NCBI GenBank assembly: GCA_000433755.1
Contig: FR891276.1
Coordinates: 2,544 to 66,543, forward strand
DNA from: Clostridium sp. CAG:465
GTDB taxonomy: Bacteria; Bacillota; Clostridia; TANB77; CAG-465
Direction: 5' to 3'
DNA length: 64,000 bases
The notes under the pieces were generated by a model. That model saw only the letters and a program-made list of their open reading frames with translations. It was not told the origin of the DNA and ran no database searches. Below, in pieces: positions 4,097 through 52,391 of this stretch. The stretch's first letter is position 1, and the number at the start of each line of letters is the position of its first letter. Both the position numbers and the translations under genes were made by a program.

Positions 4097-6124
4097 TTAA
4101 TTAAAACTTACAGTAAATTCTTTTACTTGTTTTGAGTTAAGATATACCTTAAGAGTCGCATTGCTATATCCGTTAATTTCAACAGATACAGTTTTTGTAC
4201 TAGGATCAACTGATTGATTATATACTGTGTTATATGCTCCTCCATCTATACTTGCTGTTACCTTTACATTAATAGTATCAGCCGAACTTGCTGTTCCTCC
4301 TTGTAATTCTAACAAATCAAGTGTTACAGTTTTTGTAAGTAAAATTTTATTAACAGTTATTTCAACAAGTGTTCCTTGTTTAAGAGTTTGATTTTGAGGA
4401 TAACTTTGAGCAATTACTACACCATTAGATTTAGTTTTGTCCTCGGAATATTTTACACTTACAGTAAGACCTAAAGCCTCTAAAGCACTTTTAGCATCAG
4501 ACTCTGTTTTACCTAAAACATTAGGTACCACAACTGTTTCCTTTCCATCACCTTTACTTACTTGCAATTTTATAGTTGAACCATATGGTAATGTTTCACC
4601 TTTTTTAGCATCCTGTGAAATTATAATTCCAGAAGCTACTTTTTCACTTACAACATCCTCACGTTCAATTTTAAATCCAAGAGTATCTTCTAATTCATAT
4701 GTTGCAACCTTTATATCTTTACCAGTAACATCGGGAACTTCAACCATTTTTTGGCCTTTACTTACAACTACTTTAATCTTCTTATCTTTTGTTTTAGTTC
4801 CTTTTTCAGGAGTTTGAGAAATAACTGATCCCTCTGGTTGCTCTGAACTATATTCTACCTTATCTTTAATAATTTCTATACCTTGTTTAGAGTACTCCTC
4901 AACAACTTCATCATAAACTCTACCAACTAAATTTGGCACTTCAATTTCTTTATTTTCTTCAGCTTGTTTTTTAGAATTGTTATATACTAATATTCCAACT
5001 ATTGCACCTATCACTACAACAGCAGCAATTACTGAAATAATTATAATCTTCTTTTTCTTTGATTTTTTAGGATCTTTTTTCTTAGGTTCTTCAGGTATTT
5101 CTTCATCAGATTTTGAATCTTCTATAGGTAATTCCTCTTTCATTGCTTCCCTAGTTGATATTACATTTGCTCTTCTTGGTTCTCTTGTCCTTAGATTTGG
5201 AACAGCTTCTGGTACTTCATTATTTCCAAGTATAGGAATAACTTGTGTTGCACCAGCTTCAACAGAAGAAGCAGGTCTTAAAATCAAAGAATTTGGTCTT
5301 AATAGTGCTTGTGAAATATCTGAAATAACCTCAGTTGCATTTTGATATCTAAGTGCAGTACTTTTTTGTAAAGCTTTAAGAATTATTTGATTTAATGCAG
5401 GACTTACATTTGGGTTTACATCTATTGGAGGTACAGGATCTTCCTGTATTTGTTTTAGAGCAACTGATACTGGCGAATCCGCATCAAAAGGAAGCTTACC
5501 TGTAGCCATTTCATACATTACTACACCTAAAGAATATATGTCAGATTTTTCATCAGTATATCCACCTTTAGCATGCTCTGGTGAAAAATAATGTACTGAA
5601 CCCATTGTACTACCAAAACTTGTAATGGTAGCACTTGGTACATTTGTAATTTTTGCTATACCAAAATCTGTAACTTTAGCCACCATATTTTTATTTAAAA
5701 CTATATTTTGTGGCTTTATATCCCTATGAATAATATGCGCTTTATGAGCAGTTTCCAGTGCTGAAGCAATCTGAGCTGATATTTTTAAAACTAAGTCAGA
5801 GGGCATAGCGCCATGTTCTTCAATATAATCCTTTAATGTTTTAGACTCAAGTAATTCCATTACAATGTAATTTATATCTCCCTCAGCACCTACATCATAA
5901 ACAGAAACAATATTTGCATGTGTAAGAGATGCAGCAGATTGCGCTTCTCTTCTAAATCTTTTAACAAAAGTTTCATCTTTAGCATACTCAGGTTTTAATA
6001 TCTTAACTGCAACATAACGGTTTAAAAGATGGCATTTTGCTTTGTAAACTTCTGCCATTCCACCTTCGCCAATTTTTTCTATAATTTCATATCTACCACC
6101 AAGTATTTTACCAATCATATCCAT
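4097..6124 (-). CDS. prkC: Ser/Thr protein kinase with transmembrane segment and extracellular PASTA repeats
   Basis: 675 aa. Hanks kinase motifs (GEGGMAEVYKA, HRDIKPQN, DFGIA), a TM stretch IIIISVIAAVVVIGAIVGILV, then repeated PASTA-like units (VPNLVG.., VPDVTG.., VPNVLG..). Confidence 0.9.
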   Translation of the reverse strand: MDMIGKILGGRYEIIEKIGEGGMAEVYKAKCHLLNRYVAVKILKPEYAKDETFVKRFRREAQSAASLTHANIVSVYDVGAEGDINYIVMELLESKTLKDYIEEHGAMPSDLVLKISAQIASALETAHKAHIIHRDIKPQNIVLNKNMVAKVTDFGIAKITNVPSATITSFGSTMGSVHYFSPEHAKGGYTDEKSDIYSLGVVMYEMATGKLPFDADSPVSVALKQIQEDPVPPIDVNPNVSPALNQIILKALQKSTALRYQNATEVISDISQALLRPNSLILRPASSVEAGATQVIPILGNNEVPEAVPNLRTREPRRANVISTREAMKEELPIEDSKSDEEIPEEPKKKDPKKSKKKKIIIISVIAAVVVIGAIVGILVYNNSKKQAEENKEIEVPNLVGRVYDEVVEEYSKQGIEIIKDKVEYSSEQPEGSVISQTPEKGTKTKDKKIKVVVSKGQKMVEVPDVTGKDIKVATYELEDTLGFKIEREDVVSEKVASGIIISQDAKKGETLPYGSTIKLQVSKGDGKETVVVPNVLGKTESDAKSALEALGLTVSVKYSEDKTKSNGVVIAQSYPQNQTLKQGTLVEITVNKILLTKTVTLDLLELQGGTASSADTINVKVTASIDGGAYNTVYNQSVDPSTKTVSVEINGYSNATLKVYLNSKQVKEFTVSFN

Positions 6125-6141: not shown

Positions 6142-6876
6142 TTATAGTTTTATTACTACAACGGTTGTATTATCAACCCCACCATTTTCGTTGGCTTTTT
6201 TTATATATTCATCTGCAGTGTTTTCAAATTTTTTCATTTGTAACACTTGCAAAATAGCTTCATTATCTAACATATTTGTTAAGCCATCTGTACAAAGCAG
6301 AAGATATCCTGAGGTTTCATTTAAAACATGAAGCTCTGTTTTTATATCTTTAAAGACACCTATTGCTTTTGTTAGAACATGTTTTTGAGGATGATTTTCA
6401 ACGTCTTTTTGTTCAATAGCATTTGTTTTTAGCAGAGTATTTACATATGTATCATCCTCTGTTATTTGCTTTATAGAATTTCTATCATTACTGATATAAT
6501 ATAATCTACTATCTCCAACAGACAAATAATATACTTTATTATAAATAACAGCAACAAGAACAATAGTTGTTCCCATACCGTTATACTTAGGGCTAGATTT
6601 TTCCATCTTATATATTTCACCATTTATTTTGTCAAGTGCAGTTAACAAAATATCAGAGACAATACTTTCATCTTTTAAATCATCATTTAAATGTTCTTCA
6701 AAATATCTTGACATTTTTATAGTTAAAAGTCTACTTGCAATTTCTCCACCTTCATATCCACCAAGCCCATCAGCTACTACATATAAGGATATTTCATCAC
6801 TATATTTTTTTGCAAAGTAACTGTCTTCATTATTACTTCTTCTTAAACCAACATCAGTTTTTGCAACAAACTCCAT
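6142..6876 (-). CDS. prpC: PP2C-family Ser/Thr phosphatase
   Basis: 244 aa. RRSNNEDS, ADGLGG and TDGLTN motifs. Directly upstream of prkC, as in the conserved pair. Confidence 0.9.
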   Translation of the reverse strand: MEFVAKTDVGLRRSNNEDSYFAKKYSDEISLYVVADGLGGYEGGEIASRLLTIKMSRYFEEHLNDDLKDESIVSDILLTALDKINGEIYKMEKSSPKYNGMGTTIVLVAVIYNKVYYLSVGDSRLYYISNDRNSIKQITEDDTYVNTLLKTNAIEQKDVENHPQKHVLTKAIGVFKDIKTELHVLNETSGYLLLCTDGLTNMLDNEAILQVLQMKKFENTADEYIKKANENGGVDNTTVVVIKL

Positions 6877-48315: not shown

Positions 48316-48765
48316 TTATTTTAATAATTTATTAATTTCCTTTTTAAATTCATTTATATCCTTAAACTGTCTATATACTGATGCAAATCTAACGTATGCA
48401 ATTTCATCTAAAGCTTTAAGTTTTTCGATAACCATATCCCCAATTTTTGTTGAATCTATTTCTTTTATCATCATATTGTTAAGTTCAGCTTCAATTTCAT
48501 CTGCAGCTTTCTCAATTGTTTGTGTTGAAACTGGTCTTTTTTCACATGATCTAAGCATACCACTGATAATTTTTGCTCTATCAAACTGTTGTCTTACACC
48601 ATTTTTCTTTATAACCATAATAGGTGTATACTCAATTCTTTCATAAGTTGTAAATCTATTTTTACATTCTAGACATTCGCGTCTTCTTCTTATTGAATTT
48701 GACTCTTCAACCATTCTTGAGTCTACTACCTTACTTTCCTCACAACCACATTTTAGACAATGCAT
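48316..48765 (-). CDS. nrdR: Transcriptional repressor NrdR
   Basis: 149 aa. [17 protein letters not shown] zinc ribbon plus an ATP-cone. Confidence 0.95.
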
Positions 48766-48780: not shown

Positions 48781-49302
48781 CTAAAATTCATGGAGTATTA
48801 TTCTATTTTCCTTTAAGCTACTTTTTACATCTATTGCCCTTTGATTAGTACTCCCTCTAAATTTTGCACTACTACTTTTTAAGTCTTTCATAAATTTTCC
48901 ATCAATTAAAACGTCAGTTAATTTCAATAATTCTAGATATCCGTTATCATCATTTGCATTACTAATTAAATACTCATATTTAAAACCTGTATATGTCATC
49001 ACGCTATATCTTTTAAGATCAATAAGTGACAATAACTTTGCTAACTTTTTAGCTTGCATAAATGGTTCTCCACCACTTAATGTAATTCCTTTTAAAAGTG
49101 GATTTTTTGTTATATCTTCTGCAAGAGTTGTAATACTTTCTAATTTTCCACCATTCATATCATGTGTTCCTGGATTATGACATCCTTCACAATGATGAGG
49201 ACAACCCTGGGTAAAGATTACATATCTAAACCCCGGGCCGTCAACTGTAGATTCTTTTATAACTCCAGCAATTCTTATCTTATCATCATCTACTACGCTC
49301 AT
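48781..49302 (-). CDS. nrdG: Anaerobic ribonucleoside-triphosphate reductase activating protein (radical SAM)
   Basis: 173 aa. DGPGFRYVIFTQGCPHHCEGCHNP. Its SD overlaps the stop of the upstream 89-aa ORF. Confidence 0.9.
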   Translation of the reverse strand: MSVVDDDKIRIAGVIKESTVDGPGFRYVIFTQGCPHHCEGCHNPGTHDMNGGKLESITTLAEDITKNPLLKGITLSGGEPFMQAKKLAKLLSLIDLKRYSVMTYTGFKYEYLISNANDDNGYLELLKLTDVLIDGKFMKDLKSSSAKFRGSTNQRAIDVKSSLKENRIILHEF

Positions 49303-49314
49303 GTTTACTTACTC

Positions 49315-49584
49315 CTAACAACAAACACTATGTTTTACTCTATCGTGTTCTTCTGCTCTTTTTGCATTGTTAAATCTTTCAACTGTTCCAACTAGATATC
49401 CTGTTATTCTTCTTATTCTTTCAAAAGGAACACTTTCGAAAGTATAATCCATATCTACGTAATCCCCATCAATTTTTAAATTTAATGTATCAATTTGTTT
49501 TGTAGGAAATTTTTCATTTAAATAATCCACATAAGAATCAATTTCCTTTTGTTCCATTTTTCCACCAATAACATTTATTTTCAT
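49315..49584 (-). CDS. Stand-alone glycyl-radical module homologous to the extreme C-terminus of NrdD
   Basis: 89 aa. Residues 57-85, RIRRITGYLVGTVERFNNAKRAEEHDRVKH, match the NrdD glycyl loop (R-[IV]-x-G-Y ... FN.[AG]K..E...R.KH). Own SD GAAGGAGAGG lies 8 nt before the ATG. Confidence 0.75.
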   Translation of the reverse strand: MKINVIGGKMEQKEIDSYVDYLNEKFPTKQIDTLNLKIDGDYVDMDYTFESVPFERIRRITGYLVGTVERFNNAKRAEEHDRVKHSVCC

Positions 49585-49623
49585 ATCAATTACCTCTCCT
49601 TCTATCTAACTAAAACATTTTTA

Positions 49624-52104
49624 TTAAAAACTTTCTAAAGATGCACACTCACCATGAGTCACAAATCTTTTTAATCTTTCAGAACATTTAATATCACTTT
49701 CATGTTCTTTTCTTCCACAATGTGGACATTCATCTTTTATAATTCCTGTATATCCACAAATTGGATCTCTATCTACTGGATGGTTTATAGCTCCATAACC
49801 AATTCCATTTTCTTTCATACATCTTACAACCGCCTCAAAAGCTTCTAAATTTTGTGTAGGATCACCATCAAGTTCAATGTAGCTTATATGTCCACCATTT
49901 GTTAAATTATGATATGGTGCTTCAATCTCTATTTTCTTAAATGCAGGTATTTTGTAATATACAGGTACATGGAAAGAGTTTGTATAATAATCTCTATCTG
50001 TAACGCCTTCTATTACTCCATATTTTTCTCTATCCATTCTTACAAATCTACCAGATAAACCTTCTGCAGGTGTTGCAATAAGTGAGAAATTAAGTCCTCT
50101 TTTCTCAGATTCTCTATCCATTCTTTCTCTCATATGAGATACAATAGAAAGACCTAGTTCTTGTGCTTCTGCAGATTCACCATGATGTTTTCCAATTAAA
50201 GCTTTTAATGTTTCTGCAAGTCCAATAAATCCTGCTGTAAGTGTACCATGTTTTAATACTTCTCTTACTTCATCTTCTGGATTTAATTTTTCAGAATCAA
50301 GCCATACACCTTGTTGCATTAAGAATGGGTAATTCTTTGCTCTTTTTTTAGATTGAATTTCAAGTCTATCTAGTAATTGTTCAACAACTAAATCAAGTTT
50401 TTCATCTAACATATCAAAGAATTTATCAACATCTCCATTAGCTTTTATTGCAAGTCTTGGTAGATTTATTGATGTAAAGCTTAAATTTCCTCTACCACAT
50501 GTAATCTCACGAGTTTTGTCATAAACATTTGCCATAACTCTAGTTCTACATCCCATATATGATACTTCAGAATTATAATCTCCTTTTTTATAATATTGAA
50601 GATTAAATGGAGCGTCCATAAATGAAAAGTTAGGAAATAATCTTTTTGCAGAAACTTTGCAAGCAAGTTTAAACAAATCATAGTTTGGATCTCCTTCGTT
50701 ATAATTTATTCCCTCTTTAACTTTTAAAATTTGAACTGGGAATATTGGAGTCTCACCACGACCAAGTCCTGCATCAGTTGCTAAAAGTACATTTTTAATA
50801 GCAAGTCTTCCTTCAGGTGTAGTATCAAGTCCATAATTAATTGAAGAGAATGGAACCTGAGCTCCAGCACGAGAATGCATTGTATTTAAATTATGTATAA
50901 ATCCTTCCATTGCTTGGTATGTTTCTCTATCTATTTCAATATCTGCATATTTTTTTGCAAAGTTTTGGATTTTTTTAGCTCTTGTATCTCCAAATCTTCT
51001 TCTTAATTCTACTCTTTCATATTCCATATATCCACTTGTATTTTCAAGAGTAGGGACAACACCTTTTTCATTTTTTATCTTTTCCATTATTTCTTTTGCT
51101 ATTTCTTCAGAGCTTTCTAGACTAGAAAGAAGTTCAATAGTTCTTTTTAAAGATGGAATAATTTTATTTTCACTCTTTATTTTTAATATTATATCATTTG
51201 CAACTTCTTTTGAGTATTTTACATCTTTTAACATATTTAAAGCAGATTCAAGAGCTGGAACTAAATCTTCTTCTTCATTTATTTTAGCTATTACCATATT
51301 TTTAACTTCATCTGCATTTTCAACATCTGTTAAAAGTTCAATTGCTTTTTGTAAATTCTTAGCATATAACTTTTTGTATGATTTTCTAATTCCTTGTGCC
51401 ATAGCATATTCAAAGTTTGGTATACTTTGACCACCATGTTGATCATTTTGATTTGACTGAATTGCGATTGCTGCAAGTGCTGCATAACTTCCAATACTTT
51501 GTGGTTCTCTTAAATGACCTTCACCTGTACTAAATCCATCATGAAATAGTTTTATTAAATCTATTTGACAACATGTTGTAGTAAGTGTTAAGAAATCTAA
51601 ATCATGTATGTGAATATCACCATTTATATGAGCTTGTGCATGATCTTTTTTTAACACAAACATTTGATAGAATTTTTTTGCGCCTTCTGAACCATATTTT
51701 AACATTGTTCCCATTGCTGTATCAGCATTTATATTTGCATTTTCTCTTTTTACATCACTATCTTTAGCATCTTGAAATGTTAACTGTTCATATGTTTTCA
51801 TAATATCAGAATTCATTTCTCTTTGTTTTGTTCTTTCAGATCTATACAAAATGTATGCTTTAGCAGTTGCGGCATGTCCTTCTTCTATTAAAACATGTTC
51901 TACAGCATCTTGAATTTTTTCAACTGTAGGGCATTCTTCATTTTGTGTTTTTTCAACATACTTACATACCTTAGTTGCAAGTTCCTCTGCTTCTTCGTAA
52001 TCTTTTCCACCAACAGCTACTGCTGCTTTATAAATAGCCTTAGCTATTTTTTCGACATTAAAAGGAACTTTTCTTCCATCTCTTTTAATAATCATTGTAA
52101 TCAT
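49624..52104 (-). CDS. nrdD: Anaerobic ribonucleoside-triphosphate reductase large body (ATP-cone plus catalytic barrel plus Zn site), lacking the glycyl-radical C-terminus
   Basis: Likely start is ATG 52104 (MITMIIKRDGRKVPF, ATP-cone). Motifs include NANINADT, HIHDLD, QNDQHGGQS, MGCRTR, NSFHVPV and HPVDRDPICGYTG...CPHCG. Ends ...ASLESF TAA TAA with no RxxGY loop. Confidence 0.9.
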   Translation of the reverse strand: MITMIIKRDGRKVPFNVEKIAKAIYKAAVAVGGKDYEEAEELATKVCKYVEKTQNEECPTVEKIQDAVEHVLIEEGHAATAKAYILYRSERTKQREMNSDIMKTYEQLTFQDAKDSDVKRENANINADTAMGTMLKYGSEGAKKFYQMFVLKKDHAQAHINGDIHIHDLDFLTLTTTCCQIDLIKLFHDGFSTGEGHLREPQSIGSYAALAAIAIQSNQNDQHGGQSIPNFEYAMAQGIRKSYKKLYAKNLQKAIELLTDVENADEVKNMVIAKINEEEDLVPALESALNMLKDVKYSKEVANDIILKIKSENKIIPSLKRTIELLSSLESSEEIAKEIMEKIKNEKGVVPTLENTSGYMEYERVELRRRFGDTRAKKIQNFAKKYADIEIDRETYQAMEGFIHNLNTMHSRAGAQVPFSSINYGLDTTPEGRLAIKNVLLATDAGLGRGETPIFPVQILKVKEGINYNEGDPNYDLFKLACKVSAKRLFPNFSFMDAPFNLQYYKKGDYNSEVSYMGCRTRVMANVYDKTREITCGRGNLSFTSINLPRLAIKANGDVDKFFDMLDEKLDLVVEQLLDRLEIQSKKRAKNYPFLMQQGVWLDSEKLNPEDEVREVLKHGTLTAGFIGLAETLKALIGKHHGESAEAQELGLSIVSHMRERMDRESEKRGLNFSLIATPAEGLSGRFVRMDREKYGVIEGVTDRDYYTNSFHVPVYYKIPAFKKIEIEAPYHNLTNGGHISYIELDGDPTQNLEAFEAVVRCMKENGIGYGAINHPVDRDPICGYTGIIKDECPHCGRKEHESDIKCSERLKRFVTHGECASLESF
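51049..51354 (-). repeat. Three tandem 34-aa (102-nt) coding repeats inside nrdD
   Basis: Three tandem units of exactly 34 residues each: LQKAIELLTDVENADEVKNMVIAKINEEEDLVPA / LESALNMLKDVKYSKEVANDIILKIKSENKIIPS / LKRTIELLSSLESSEEIAKEIMEKIKNEKGVVPT. Confidence 0.7.
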
Positions 52105-52140: not shown

Positions 52141-52156
52141 ATACAATATATTGTGA
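52141..52156 (-). promoter_or_regulatory. NrdR box (proximal), just downstream of the nrdD promoter -10
   Basis: The minus strand reads TCACAATATATTGTAT, versus the recalled consensus acaCwAtATaTwGtgt. Confidence 0.7.
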
Positions 52157-52169
52157 TTTTCTGACTATG

Positions 52170-52198
52170 ATTATAGCACTAAGAAAAATGTCTGTCAA
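52170..52198 (-). promoter_or_regulatory. Consensus sigma-A promoter of the nrdD operon
   Basis: On the minus strand: TTGACA (52198-52193), 17-nt spacer, TATAAT (52175-52170). Confidence 0.75.
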
Positions 52199-52344: not shown

Positions 52345-52391
52345 ACACATTATATTGTATACATAATTTTTATAAATACAATATAATGTAT
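52345..52391 (-). promoter_or_regulatory. Tandem pair of NrdR-box-like palindromes, 31 bp centre to centre
   Basis: Minus strand: ATACATTATATTGTAT (52391-52376) and ATACAATATAATGTGT (52360-52345). The pair abuts and overlaps the stop of the DUF2752 gene. Confidence 0.6.

Follow-up and report, generated by a model that had tools for sequence, protein, structure and literature searches.

A putative two-polypeptide class III ribonucleotide reductase with a predicted trans-acting glycyl-radical module in Clostridium sp. CAG:465

Glycyl-radical enzymes are cleaved by oxygen at the radical glycine. In pyruvate formate-lyase (PFL) the affected part is replaced by a small free-standing protein carrying a C-terminal copy of the glycyl-radical loop of the large enzyme, either GrcA/YfiD of Escherichia coli or Y06I of phage T4. 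A study on YfiD from 2021 and a review of June 2026 name formate lyases as the only enzymes with known spare parts of this kind, and both papers pose their existence for other glycyl-radical enzymes as a question. The class III ribonucleotide reductase (RNR) NrdD carries a glycyl-radical domain that is highly mobile and flips out of the barrel for activation by NrdG. Here, an operon of Clostridium sp. CAG:465 is described in which this loop is absent from NrdD and is found on a separate small open reading frame (ORF) of 89 amino acids (aa). The operon is part of a stretch of 64,000 nucleotides (nt; contig FR891276.1, positions 2,544 to 66,543, GC content 26.9%), which was analyzed as a whole and is called the window; coordinates refer to it.

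According to the ORF calls, the operon consists of four closely packed genes on the minus strand in the order nrdD, small ORF, nrdG and nrdR. We propose that it encodes a two-polypeptide class III RNR, with the 89-aa protein acting in trans as a module of the GrcA/YfiD kind. From comparative sequence analysis we assign this reading a probability of about 75%. A supply of the radical module in trans had been suggested in a preliminary description of the locus, and it gains support from the conserved split, the purifying selection and the strict adjacency of the genes reported below. The operon has the following parts.

49624..52104, minus strand: nrdD, catalytic body of a class III ribonucleotide reductase without glycyl-radical loop, 826 aa from ATG 52104
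51829-52095, minus strand: ATP-cone, NrdD aa 4-92, from profile
50545-50556, minus strand: finger-loop motif MGCR, NrdD aa 517-520, read as motif
49714-49764, minus strand: Zn-ribbon remnant PICGY...CPHCG, NrdD aa 781-797, from alignment
49624..49683, minus strand: relic of NrdD's own loop, SERLKRFVTHGECASLESF and stop, from comparison with the full-length relatives L081, L006, P0276, P0311, P0312 and P0322
49585..49623, minus strand: spacer between nrdD and small ORF, 39 nt, containing the small ORF's Shine-Dalgarno sequence GAAGGAGAGG and, in frame, two more stop codons (TAA, TAG), read from the sequence
49315..49584, minus strand: small ORF, 89 aa, predicted trans-acting NrdD-type glycyl-radical module, from profiles and alignments
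49435-49584, minus strand: N-terminal domain, small-ORF aa 1-50
49330-49428, minus strand: loop PFERIRRITGYLVGTVERFNNAKRAEEHDRVKH, small-ORF aa 53-85
49399-49401, minus strand: codon GGA of Gly62, the predicted radical glycine
48781..49302, minus strand: nrdG, radical-SAM (S-adenosylmethionine) activase, 173 aa, TIGR02491 with 144.7 bits (cut-off 126.1)
48316..48765, minus strand: nrdR, repressor of RNR genes with ATP-cone and Zn-ribbon, 149 aa, last gene of the operon, TIGR00244 with 204.1 bits (cut-off 124.65)

The NrdD body and the small protein

The large chain passes the whole-protein cut-offs for class III RNR with 1099.5 bits on NF005497 (cut-off 764) and 646 bits on PF13597 (cut-off 26.2). 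These matches end at profile positions 711 of 746 and 538 of 562, respectively, and a motif search for R-[IV]-x-G-Y gave no hit in the 826-aa ORF, including its tail. The remaining end of the profiles is matched by the small ORF. With residues 50-86 it covers positions 708-744 of NF005497 (E 4.8e-12); matches were also obtained to NF011292 (positions 585-617 of 618, E 2.9e-12) and to PF13597 (positions 533-562, 30 bits). Since the NF005497 match of NrdD stops at position 711 and that of the small ORF starts at 708, the NrdD profile is divided between the two proteins at one point. Thus, the earlier assignments of the large ORF as a body without glycyl loop and of the small ORF as an NrdD C-terminus are both borne out. 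NrdG has Fer4_12 and Radical_SAM domains beside its score above the TIGR02491 cut-off and belongs to the activases.

Residues 54-85 of the small ORF align with residues 707-738 of NrdD from Prevotella copri (8p23). In the P. copri enzyme the radical resides on Gly711, Tyr712 forms a bridge to the substrate site and Arg719 touches the flap. The corresponding residues G62, Y63 and R70 are all invariant in the alignment of the small-ORF family, in which the segment P53-H85 is nearly invariant and the first 50 residues follow a conserved pattern with variation. For these 50 residues no similarity to NrdD was detected by BLASTP or profile-profile comparison, the alignment covering the loop only, and no model of Pfam, NCBIfam or PHROG covers the domain. 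AlphaFold2 predicted a beta-alpha-beta-beta unit for residues 2-49 with moderate confidence (predicted local distance difference test, pLDDT, 71-78). Foldseek against the PDB yielded nothing significant for this model; the top hits were folds of the HPF/YfiA type (E 7e-3, TM-score 0.38). For the loop of the small ORF modelled alone, pLDDT was below 50. An interpretation as disorder in absence of the partner was rejected, as in the full-length relative P0292, used as control, the native loop likewise stayed below a pLDDT of 50. Hence, model confidence is uninformative on the loop either way. A cluster look-up gave no name for the small protein, and neither a specific family nor an annotated record was found in the cultured-phage collection and PHROGs.

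The body of NrdD retains ATP-cone, barrel, finger loop and Zn-ribbon region. MGCR or MCCR marks the finger loop with the radical-relay cysteine of NrdD (PMC9669993), and MGCR is present in the window. The predicted zinc site reads DPIC...CPHC, compared with CLDC...CPKC in P. copri; three cysteines are kept and Asp replaces the first one. This Asp distinguishes the site from those of P. copri and T4 NrdD. It is common to the full-length relatives and is therefore unrelated to the split.

Behind the zinc site, full-length relatives continue as ...CPHCGR-x(9-12)-FERIRRITGYLVGTVDRFNNGKRAEEHDRVKH-tail, some with the terminus CCSLESFDD. The NrdD of the window ends with ...CPHCGRKEHESDIKC-SERLKRF-VTHGE-CASLESF and stop. 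It retains the lead-in strand ER[LI][KR]R[FI] (ERLKRF in the window, ERIRRI in relatives) and the C-terminal motif (C)xSLESF, and the Gly loop and the helix are gone. About 27 residues of the relatives, comprising the glycine and the following helix, correspond to 5 residues in the window. Decay by point mutations, with TAA TAA at the positions of two former Asn codons, was considered as well. Internal replacement of loop and helix is preferred because the full-length relatives end with ...CCSLESFDD. The residues between zinc site and Gly loop had been regarded as unrelated to NrdD; this applies to the N-terminal 50 residues of the small ORF, whereas the 29-residue tail of the large chain is a relic with recognizable strand and CASLESF end.

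Cysteine-rich extreme C-termini recur at this locus, with HSVCC in the small ORF (49315-49329) and GECASLESF in NrdD (49624-49650). The full-length relatives P0276, P0311, P0312 and P0322 have cysteine-rich ends, too, of the type HSTCCSLESFDD or similar. The truncated NrdD retained this tail though the loop was lost, which suggests a separate role of the tail, perhaps in metal binding or redox reactions.

GrcA/YfiD is the described system that resembles the small protein most. By analogy, the module would be activated by the activase of its partner and would replace the loop in trans. Within a genome, the loops of small ORF and NrdD have the same or nearly the same sequence, and the gene is free-standing in most genomes, as expected for a protein working like GrcA. 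Phage-encoded versions exist, paralleling Y06I of T4, and some genomes show linkage to oxygen-stress genes. In contrast to GrcA, the loop is of the NrdD type and not of the PFL type: at E<=1 in Pfam and NCBIfam, neither Pfam Gly_radical (PF01228) nor GrcA models matched the small ORF, and only the C-termini of NrdD models did. Furthermore, the N-terminal half is predicted to be folded, whereas that of YfiD is disordered, and the family stands under predicted NrdR operators. In several lineages a partner without the glycine would make the module obligatory, which is not known for PFL. A second analogy drawn earlier, to phage RNR genes split into two functional parts, fits less well, as no remnant of an intron, intein or homing endonuclease was seen.

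With the canonical NrdD/NrdG systems of E. coli, T4, P. copri (8p23) and Streptococcus thermophilus (9d3x), the window shares ATP-cone, barrel, MGCR, Zn-ribbon region and NrdG, the loop residues Gly, Tyr and Arg, and, by prediction, control of the operon by NrdR. It differs by the location of the radical loop on a second polypeptide, by the Asp in the zinc site and by an insertion of about 70 aa in the body. Due to this insertion, a helical unit of about 34 aa occurs three times in tandem at NrdD aa 262-359 (51028-51321; ...EVKNMVIAKINEEEDLVPALESALNMLKDV / KYSKEVANDIILKIKSENKIIPSLKRTIELLSSL / ESSEEIAKEIMEKIKNEKGVVPTLENTSGY). The insertion occurs in the window clade, L094 and L081, and the more distant full-length L006 has a single copy.

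Two further systems use two chains. The class II RNR NrdJa/NrdJb of Pseudomonas aeruginosa (Crona et al. 2015), compared here as cited in PMC9669993, is likewise encoded by two adjacent genes whose products must associate. As far as described there, it is a vitamin B12 enzyme, its split does not isolate the radical site as a small module, and its small piece is not known to form a free-standing family. The resemblance to NrdB of class I RNR is conceptual only: a radical is made and stored on one chain and used by the barrel of another. NrdB contains a tyrosyl/metal radical, with a long path of proton-coupled electron transfer from a ferritin-like protein. In the window system, a backbone glycyl radical would be carried by a loop that needs physical entry into the barrel.

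Conservation of the split and loss of the loop in NrdD

The junction of nrdD and small ORF was read again and agrees with the preliminary description. The stop codon TAA of nrdD is followed by TAA and TAG in the same frame within the spacer, and GAAGGAGAGG lies 8 nt 5' of the small-ORF ATG at 49584. The codon of Gly62 is placed as stated before, and the Shine-Dalgarno sequence of nrdG overlaps the TAG stop of the small ORF. The same junction was found in contig L001 of a metagenome-assembled genome. The NrdD cluster of the window has 254 member sequences, and near-identical small ORFs occur on 60-178 contigs. In relatives with 75-90% identical NrdD the split is kept with spacers of 41, 71, 60 and 30 nt; other split loci have a spacer of 9 nt or a TAATG overlap. 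Altogether, the split was seen in at least six lineages with differing junctions and reading frames. Since the spacers vary between lineages, the frames differ and read-through is excluded. The view that the split is no frameshift error is thus confirmed, and its presence in related genomes, which had been named as a check, was found.

The ratio of nonsynonymous to synonymous substitution rates (dN/dS) of the Gly-less nrdD was 0.073, 0.14 and 0.21 in comparison with three other Gly-less lineages (dS about 0.8). For the small ORF values of 0.07-0.18 were obtained. Judged by these ratios, both genes are functional and under purifying selection.

The C-terminal tails were surveyed in the 120 NrdD clusters closest to the NrdD of the window. 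About 30 of them lack RITGY, and their tails fall into about ten types. The stub ER[IL][KR]R is common to all Gly-less tails, which diverge at the position of T-G-Y; examples are ...FERIRRISCASCKTVYDV, ...HERIKRIK and ...SERIKRPNVNNYECCY. A distance tree of the NrdD body alone gave a near-trichotomy of the window clade, the Gly-less L094 and the full-length L081. Thus, the loop was probably lost independently at least twice. At all of the about 20 Gly-less loci having downstream sequence, the small ORF comes next, followed by nrdG. One of these loci, L176, has a Gly-less NrdD ending with ...HERIKRIK and stop, and the small ORF behind it (4310-4600) is interrupted by an in-frame TAA after codon 10. 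It is the sole damaged copy seen, on a contig with 3x coverage, and may reflect a sequencing error or a true pseudogene.

A further, more distant group consists of NrdDs of 607-634 aa without ATP-cone on phage-like contigs of IMG/VR (L135, L137, L138, L140-L142, L147, L148, L150, L156). Most of them end with ...E-K-V-R-R-I-K and stop, one residue before the Gly position. This terminus would be about where oxygen cleaves the activated enzyme. In this group the nrdD stop overlaps the start of the small ORF (TAATG), and the codons for Arg-Arg-Ile, AGGAGGAT, form the Shine-Dalgarno sequence. L137 and L138 have another tail, which overlaps the small ORF by 11 nt.

Family of the small protein, genomic settings and regulation

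A word-indexed search with the small ORF gave at least 8000 matches, the best 120 of which are all 73-97 aa long. By exhaustive search of representatives of 50%-identity clusters, 2022 clusters were obtained at E<=1e-3 and at least 612 at E<=1e-10. The best 150 of these have 52-236 aa and align over most or all of the 89-aa query, including the N-terminal domain. The loop alone scores 30-46 bits, which is estimated to be too low for E<=1e-10 in the cluster library. Hence, the 612 clusters are probably members of the small-ORF family and not C-termini of NrdD. At least 560 species-level genomes of Clostridia carry the small gene, among them Ruminococcus, Oscillospiraceae, Christensenellaceae, Acutalibacteraceae and others. 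The small ORF therefore appears not to be a mere fragment of NrdD; it seems to belong to a large free-standing family normally coexisting with intact NrdD.

Several genomic settings were distinguished. The order nrdD, small gene, nrdG, nrdR occurs with intact NrdD (L006, L081-84, L178) and, as in the window, with Gly-less NrdD. In the operon of L178, which is similar to Clostridium sp. CAG:1219, the intact nrdD is separated from the small ORF by a gene (4833-5486) for an unannotated protein of 217 aa with an N-terminal hydrophobic segment. Where both loops are present in one genome, their coding sequences differ at 4 of 96 nt (L006), 2 of 105 nt (L081-84) and 5 of 57 nt (L178), and they have lineage-specific substitutions in common. 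This similarity indicates concerted evolution or a very strong common constraint. On the DNA level, the two loop-coding segments of a genome are direct repeats of about 100 nt with 95-98% identity to each other, in L006 (4492-4599 and 4810-4905), in L081 (approximately 5800-5905 and 6150-6260) and also in L178. Such a repeat fits gene conversion, and as a recombination substrate it could serve to delete or rebuild either copy.

The other small genes are free-standing with variable neighbours. Clustering of the neighbours yielded mostly unrelated housekeeping genes; context is therefore informative only for the nrd, the Crp/Fnr-flavodiiron and the phage groups. The largest neighbour cluster was rejected as an artefact of antisense ORFs. 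In five loci, the free-standing copy is followed after about 280 nt by a metK-like gene, recognized by eye, for S-adenosylmethionine synthetase (e.g. L019 3518-4702). SAM is the co-substrate of NrdG; the proximity may be coincidence.

In loci of the Christensenellaceae type, the small gene is located 35-40 nt upstream of a gene for a flavodiiron protein with the domains Lactamase_B, ODP and Flavodoxin and divergent from a regulator gene of the Crp/Fnr family (L002-L005, L085-L088; e.g. L085 5238-7506). The intergenic region of 115 nt contains a conserved palindrome, TGTTGC-N4-GCAACA, and the block GGTTAAAAGTAAAGC. At the level of gene order, these loci show a link of the small gene to oxygen. 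In about ten loci of IMG/VR, a free-standing copy was found 0.5-2.5 kb from phage head-tail genes. Its neighbours are genes for head-tail adaptor, head-closure, tail-terminator and major-tail proteins (L101-L115 group); examples are L106 (2729-5211), L108, L109 and L115. Genes for MazG-like pyrophosphatases recur beside other IMG/VR copies.

Upstream of the operon in the window, the following regulatory elements are predicted.

52170..52198, minus strand: promoter of the sigma-70 type, TTGACA-17-TATAAT with 12/12 matches and TG before the -10 hexamer, by consensus match only
52346..52390, no strand assigned: tandem pair of NrdR boxes, 31 bp from start to start, by pattern search
52377-52390: upstream core of the pair, TACATTATATTGTA on the minus strand, 3 mismatches, 5/6 core positions
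52346-52359: second core of the pair, 2 mismatches
52142..52155, no strand assigned: NrdR-box-like site shortly after the -10 hexamer, 1 mismatch to CACWATATATWGTG, by pattern search

The canonical NrdR operator consists of two 16-bp boxes with a linker of 15-16 bp, and the positions C4, A6, A8, T9, T11 and G13 of the box are conserved (PMC13584703). The spacing of the box pair in the window agrees with this tandem geometry, and the pair is a predicted operator. Four NrdR-box-like sites were counted in the whole window, a number that alone is not above chance; the site at the promoter is notable by its position.

For the free-standing genes, a site with at most 2 mismatches to CACWATATATWGTG within 250 nt upstream was taken as NrdR-box-like. 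It was present at 47 of 79 copies, whereas other ORFs of these loci had such a site in 2 of 395 upstream regions (Fisher p 6e-41); shuffled sequences lead to an expectation of 0.47 sites. Second, weaker boxes peak at +/-30-33 bp, which is the canonical tandem spacing. Enrichment and spacing together indicate that the free-standing genes carry the operator architecture of the RNR-specific repressor NrdR. These predicted operators tie the small gene to RNR.

The proposed trans-acting module and alternative explanations

In the proposed two-polypeptide enzyme, NrdG would activate the small protein by abstraction of a hydrogen atom at Gly62. The activated loop would then enter the barrel of NrdD in trans, at the place beside the finger-loop cysteine that an NrdD's own loop normally occupies, and initiate every turnover. 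The N-terminal domain of about 50 residues probably serves to dock the module to NrdD or to offer it to NrdG. In relatives with intact NrdD, the module is most likely a spare part replacing a loop lost to oxygen cleavage. With a trans copy already present, the loop of NrdD itself would have become dispensable, and its repeated loss in several lineages including that of the window may be due to this. The small protein would be the sole and obligatory radical carrier in the window lineage. The arrangement of the window thus seems derived, with a trans copy beside an intact NrdD as the probable ancestral state. Extended to the whole family, we consider it rather probable, with less confidence than for the operon itself, that a spare-part system for class III RNR, controlled by NrdR, is widespread among Clostridia of gut and rumen and their phages, with the glycine provided only in trans in several lineages.

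Some observations weigh against this reading or do not bear on it. The N-terminal domain is without detectable relative in sequence, profile and structure searches, and the AlphaFold2 confidence of the loop, in small ORF and P0292 control, lends no support either way. Tails of the window type conserve a glycine (RF-x3-GEC), which a module in trans leaves unexplained. Coexistence with intact NrdD was shown for loci of the operon type; for most free-standing copies it was assigned by taxon. An NrdR box was found at 1 of 68 free-standing IMG/VR copies. Finally, the visible DNA comprises 64 kb, within which no second nrdD was found.

This last point would allow the truncated nrdD to be an inactive, decaying gene, with another RNR encoded elsewhere that is served by the small ORF. 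However, the 826 codons show dN/dS of 0.07-0.21 between lineages that all lack the loop (dS about 0.8), which is not that of a decaying gene. Catalytic motifs (MGCR, ATP-cone) are intact, the operon with nrdG and nrdR has kept promoter and NrdR boxes, and the NrdD cluster has its 254 members. We regard decay as improbable, slightly more so than a function of the small protein as decoy or regulator, which is itself unlikely. In such a function it would titrate NrdG as decoy substrate or radical buffer, or sense oxygen for RNR. The exact sequence recognized by NrdG, the co-regulation with RNR genes and the co-located oxygen-defence genes of some genomes are compatible with it. The window and at least five other Gly-less lineages would then be without radical source, yet they show purifying selection and nrdG operons, and the TAATG coupling in phage-type modules suggests co-ordinated synthesis, as for subunits.

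It is even less likely that NrdD itself bears the radical on its relic, either at the old Gly position, which is Thr in the window, or at the glycine of RF-x3-GEC. Homologues of glycyl-radical enzymes with alanyl, seryl and threonyl radicals exist (PMC11528403), and conservation of RF-x3-GEC in window-type tails would agree with such a role. But the Gly position is occupied by T, I, V, K, C or S depending on the lineage, or the protein ends earlier, and several lineages have no glycine at all after the stub. Moreover, the Tyr after the glycine and the C-terminal helix are gone, both of which contact flap and substrate site in P. copri NrdD. Scarcely credible is one continuous NrdD whose split is feigned by a sequencing or assembly error or bridged by programmed read-through or translational bypassing. 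Both ORFs of the window happen to share a frame, but they are separated by three in-frame stops. The identical junction in independent assemblies, the spacers of relatives leading to other frames, and the conservation of the N-terminal domain as protein in thousands of free-standing genes speak against it.

No published description of a split NrdD or an RNR spare part was found in a search with incomplete journal coverage, in line with the earlier statement that the arrangement is undescribed for NrdD. The principle of spare parts is known from PFL; new would be the different enzyme, the distinct protein family and, in the window, the genetically fixed obligatory form. If the proposed spare-part system is real, the module would be the first autonomous glycyl-radical cofactor for a glycyl-radical enzyme other than PFL. 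Likewise, several lineages, that of the window among them, would have the first such enzyme to receive its radical glycine solely from a second polypeptide. With their termini at or near the site of oxygen cleavage, the Gly-less NrdDs would represent genetically "pre-cleaved" natural enzymes, ideally suited to study the trans delivery of a glycyl-radical domain. In these two-piece enzymes radical module, barrel and activase would be separable, which bears on the access of the activase to a buried glycine.

The small protein is a candidate spare part for the most essential glycyl-radical enzyme, the anaerobic ribonucleotide reductase, and may help to explain how strict gut anaerobes synthesize DNA precursors after transient exposure to oxygen. 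The phage-borne copies suggest that viruses use the same trick. For annotation, thousands of genes for proteins of about 90 aa, unnamed or hypothetical so far, would become functional radical modules, and about a quarter of the closest NrdD clusters, seemingly truncated, would become functional bodies.

A 77-aa ORF on the plus strand of the window (49162-49395) runs antisense to the junction of small ORF and nrdG, and equivalent antisense frames occur in relatives. Such frames made up the largest, spurious neighbour cluster, and the ORF was dismissed as an artefact of the AT-rich sequence.

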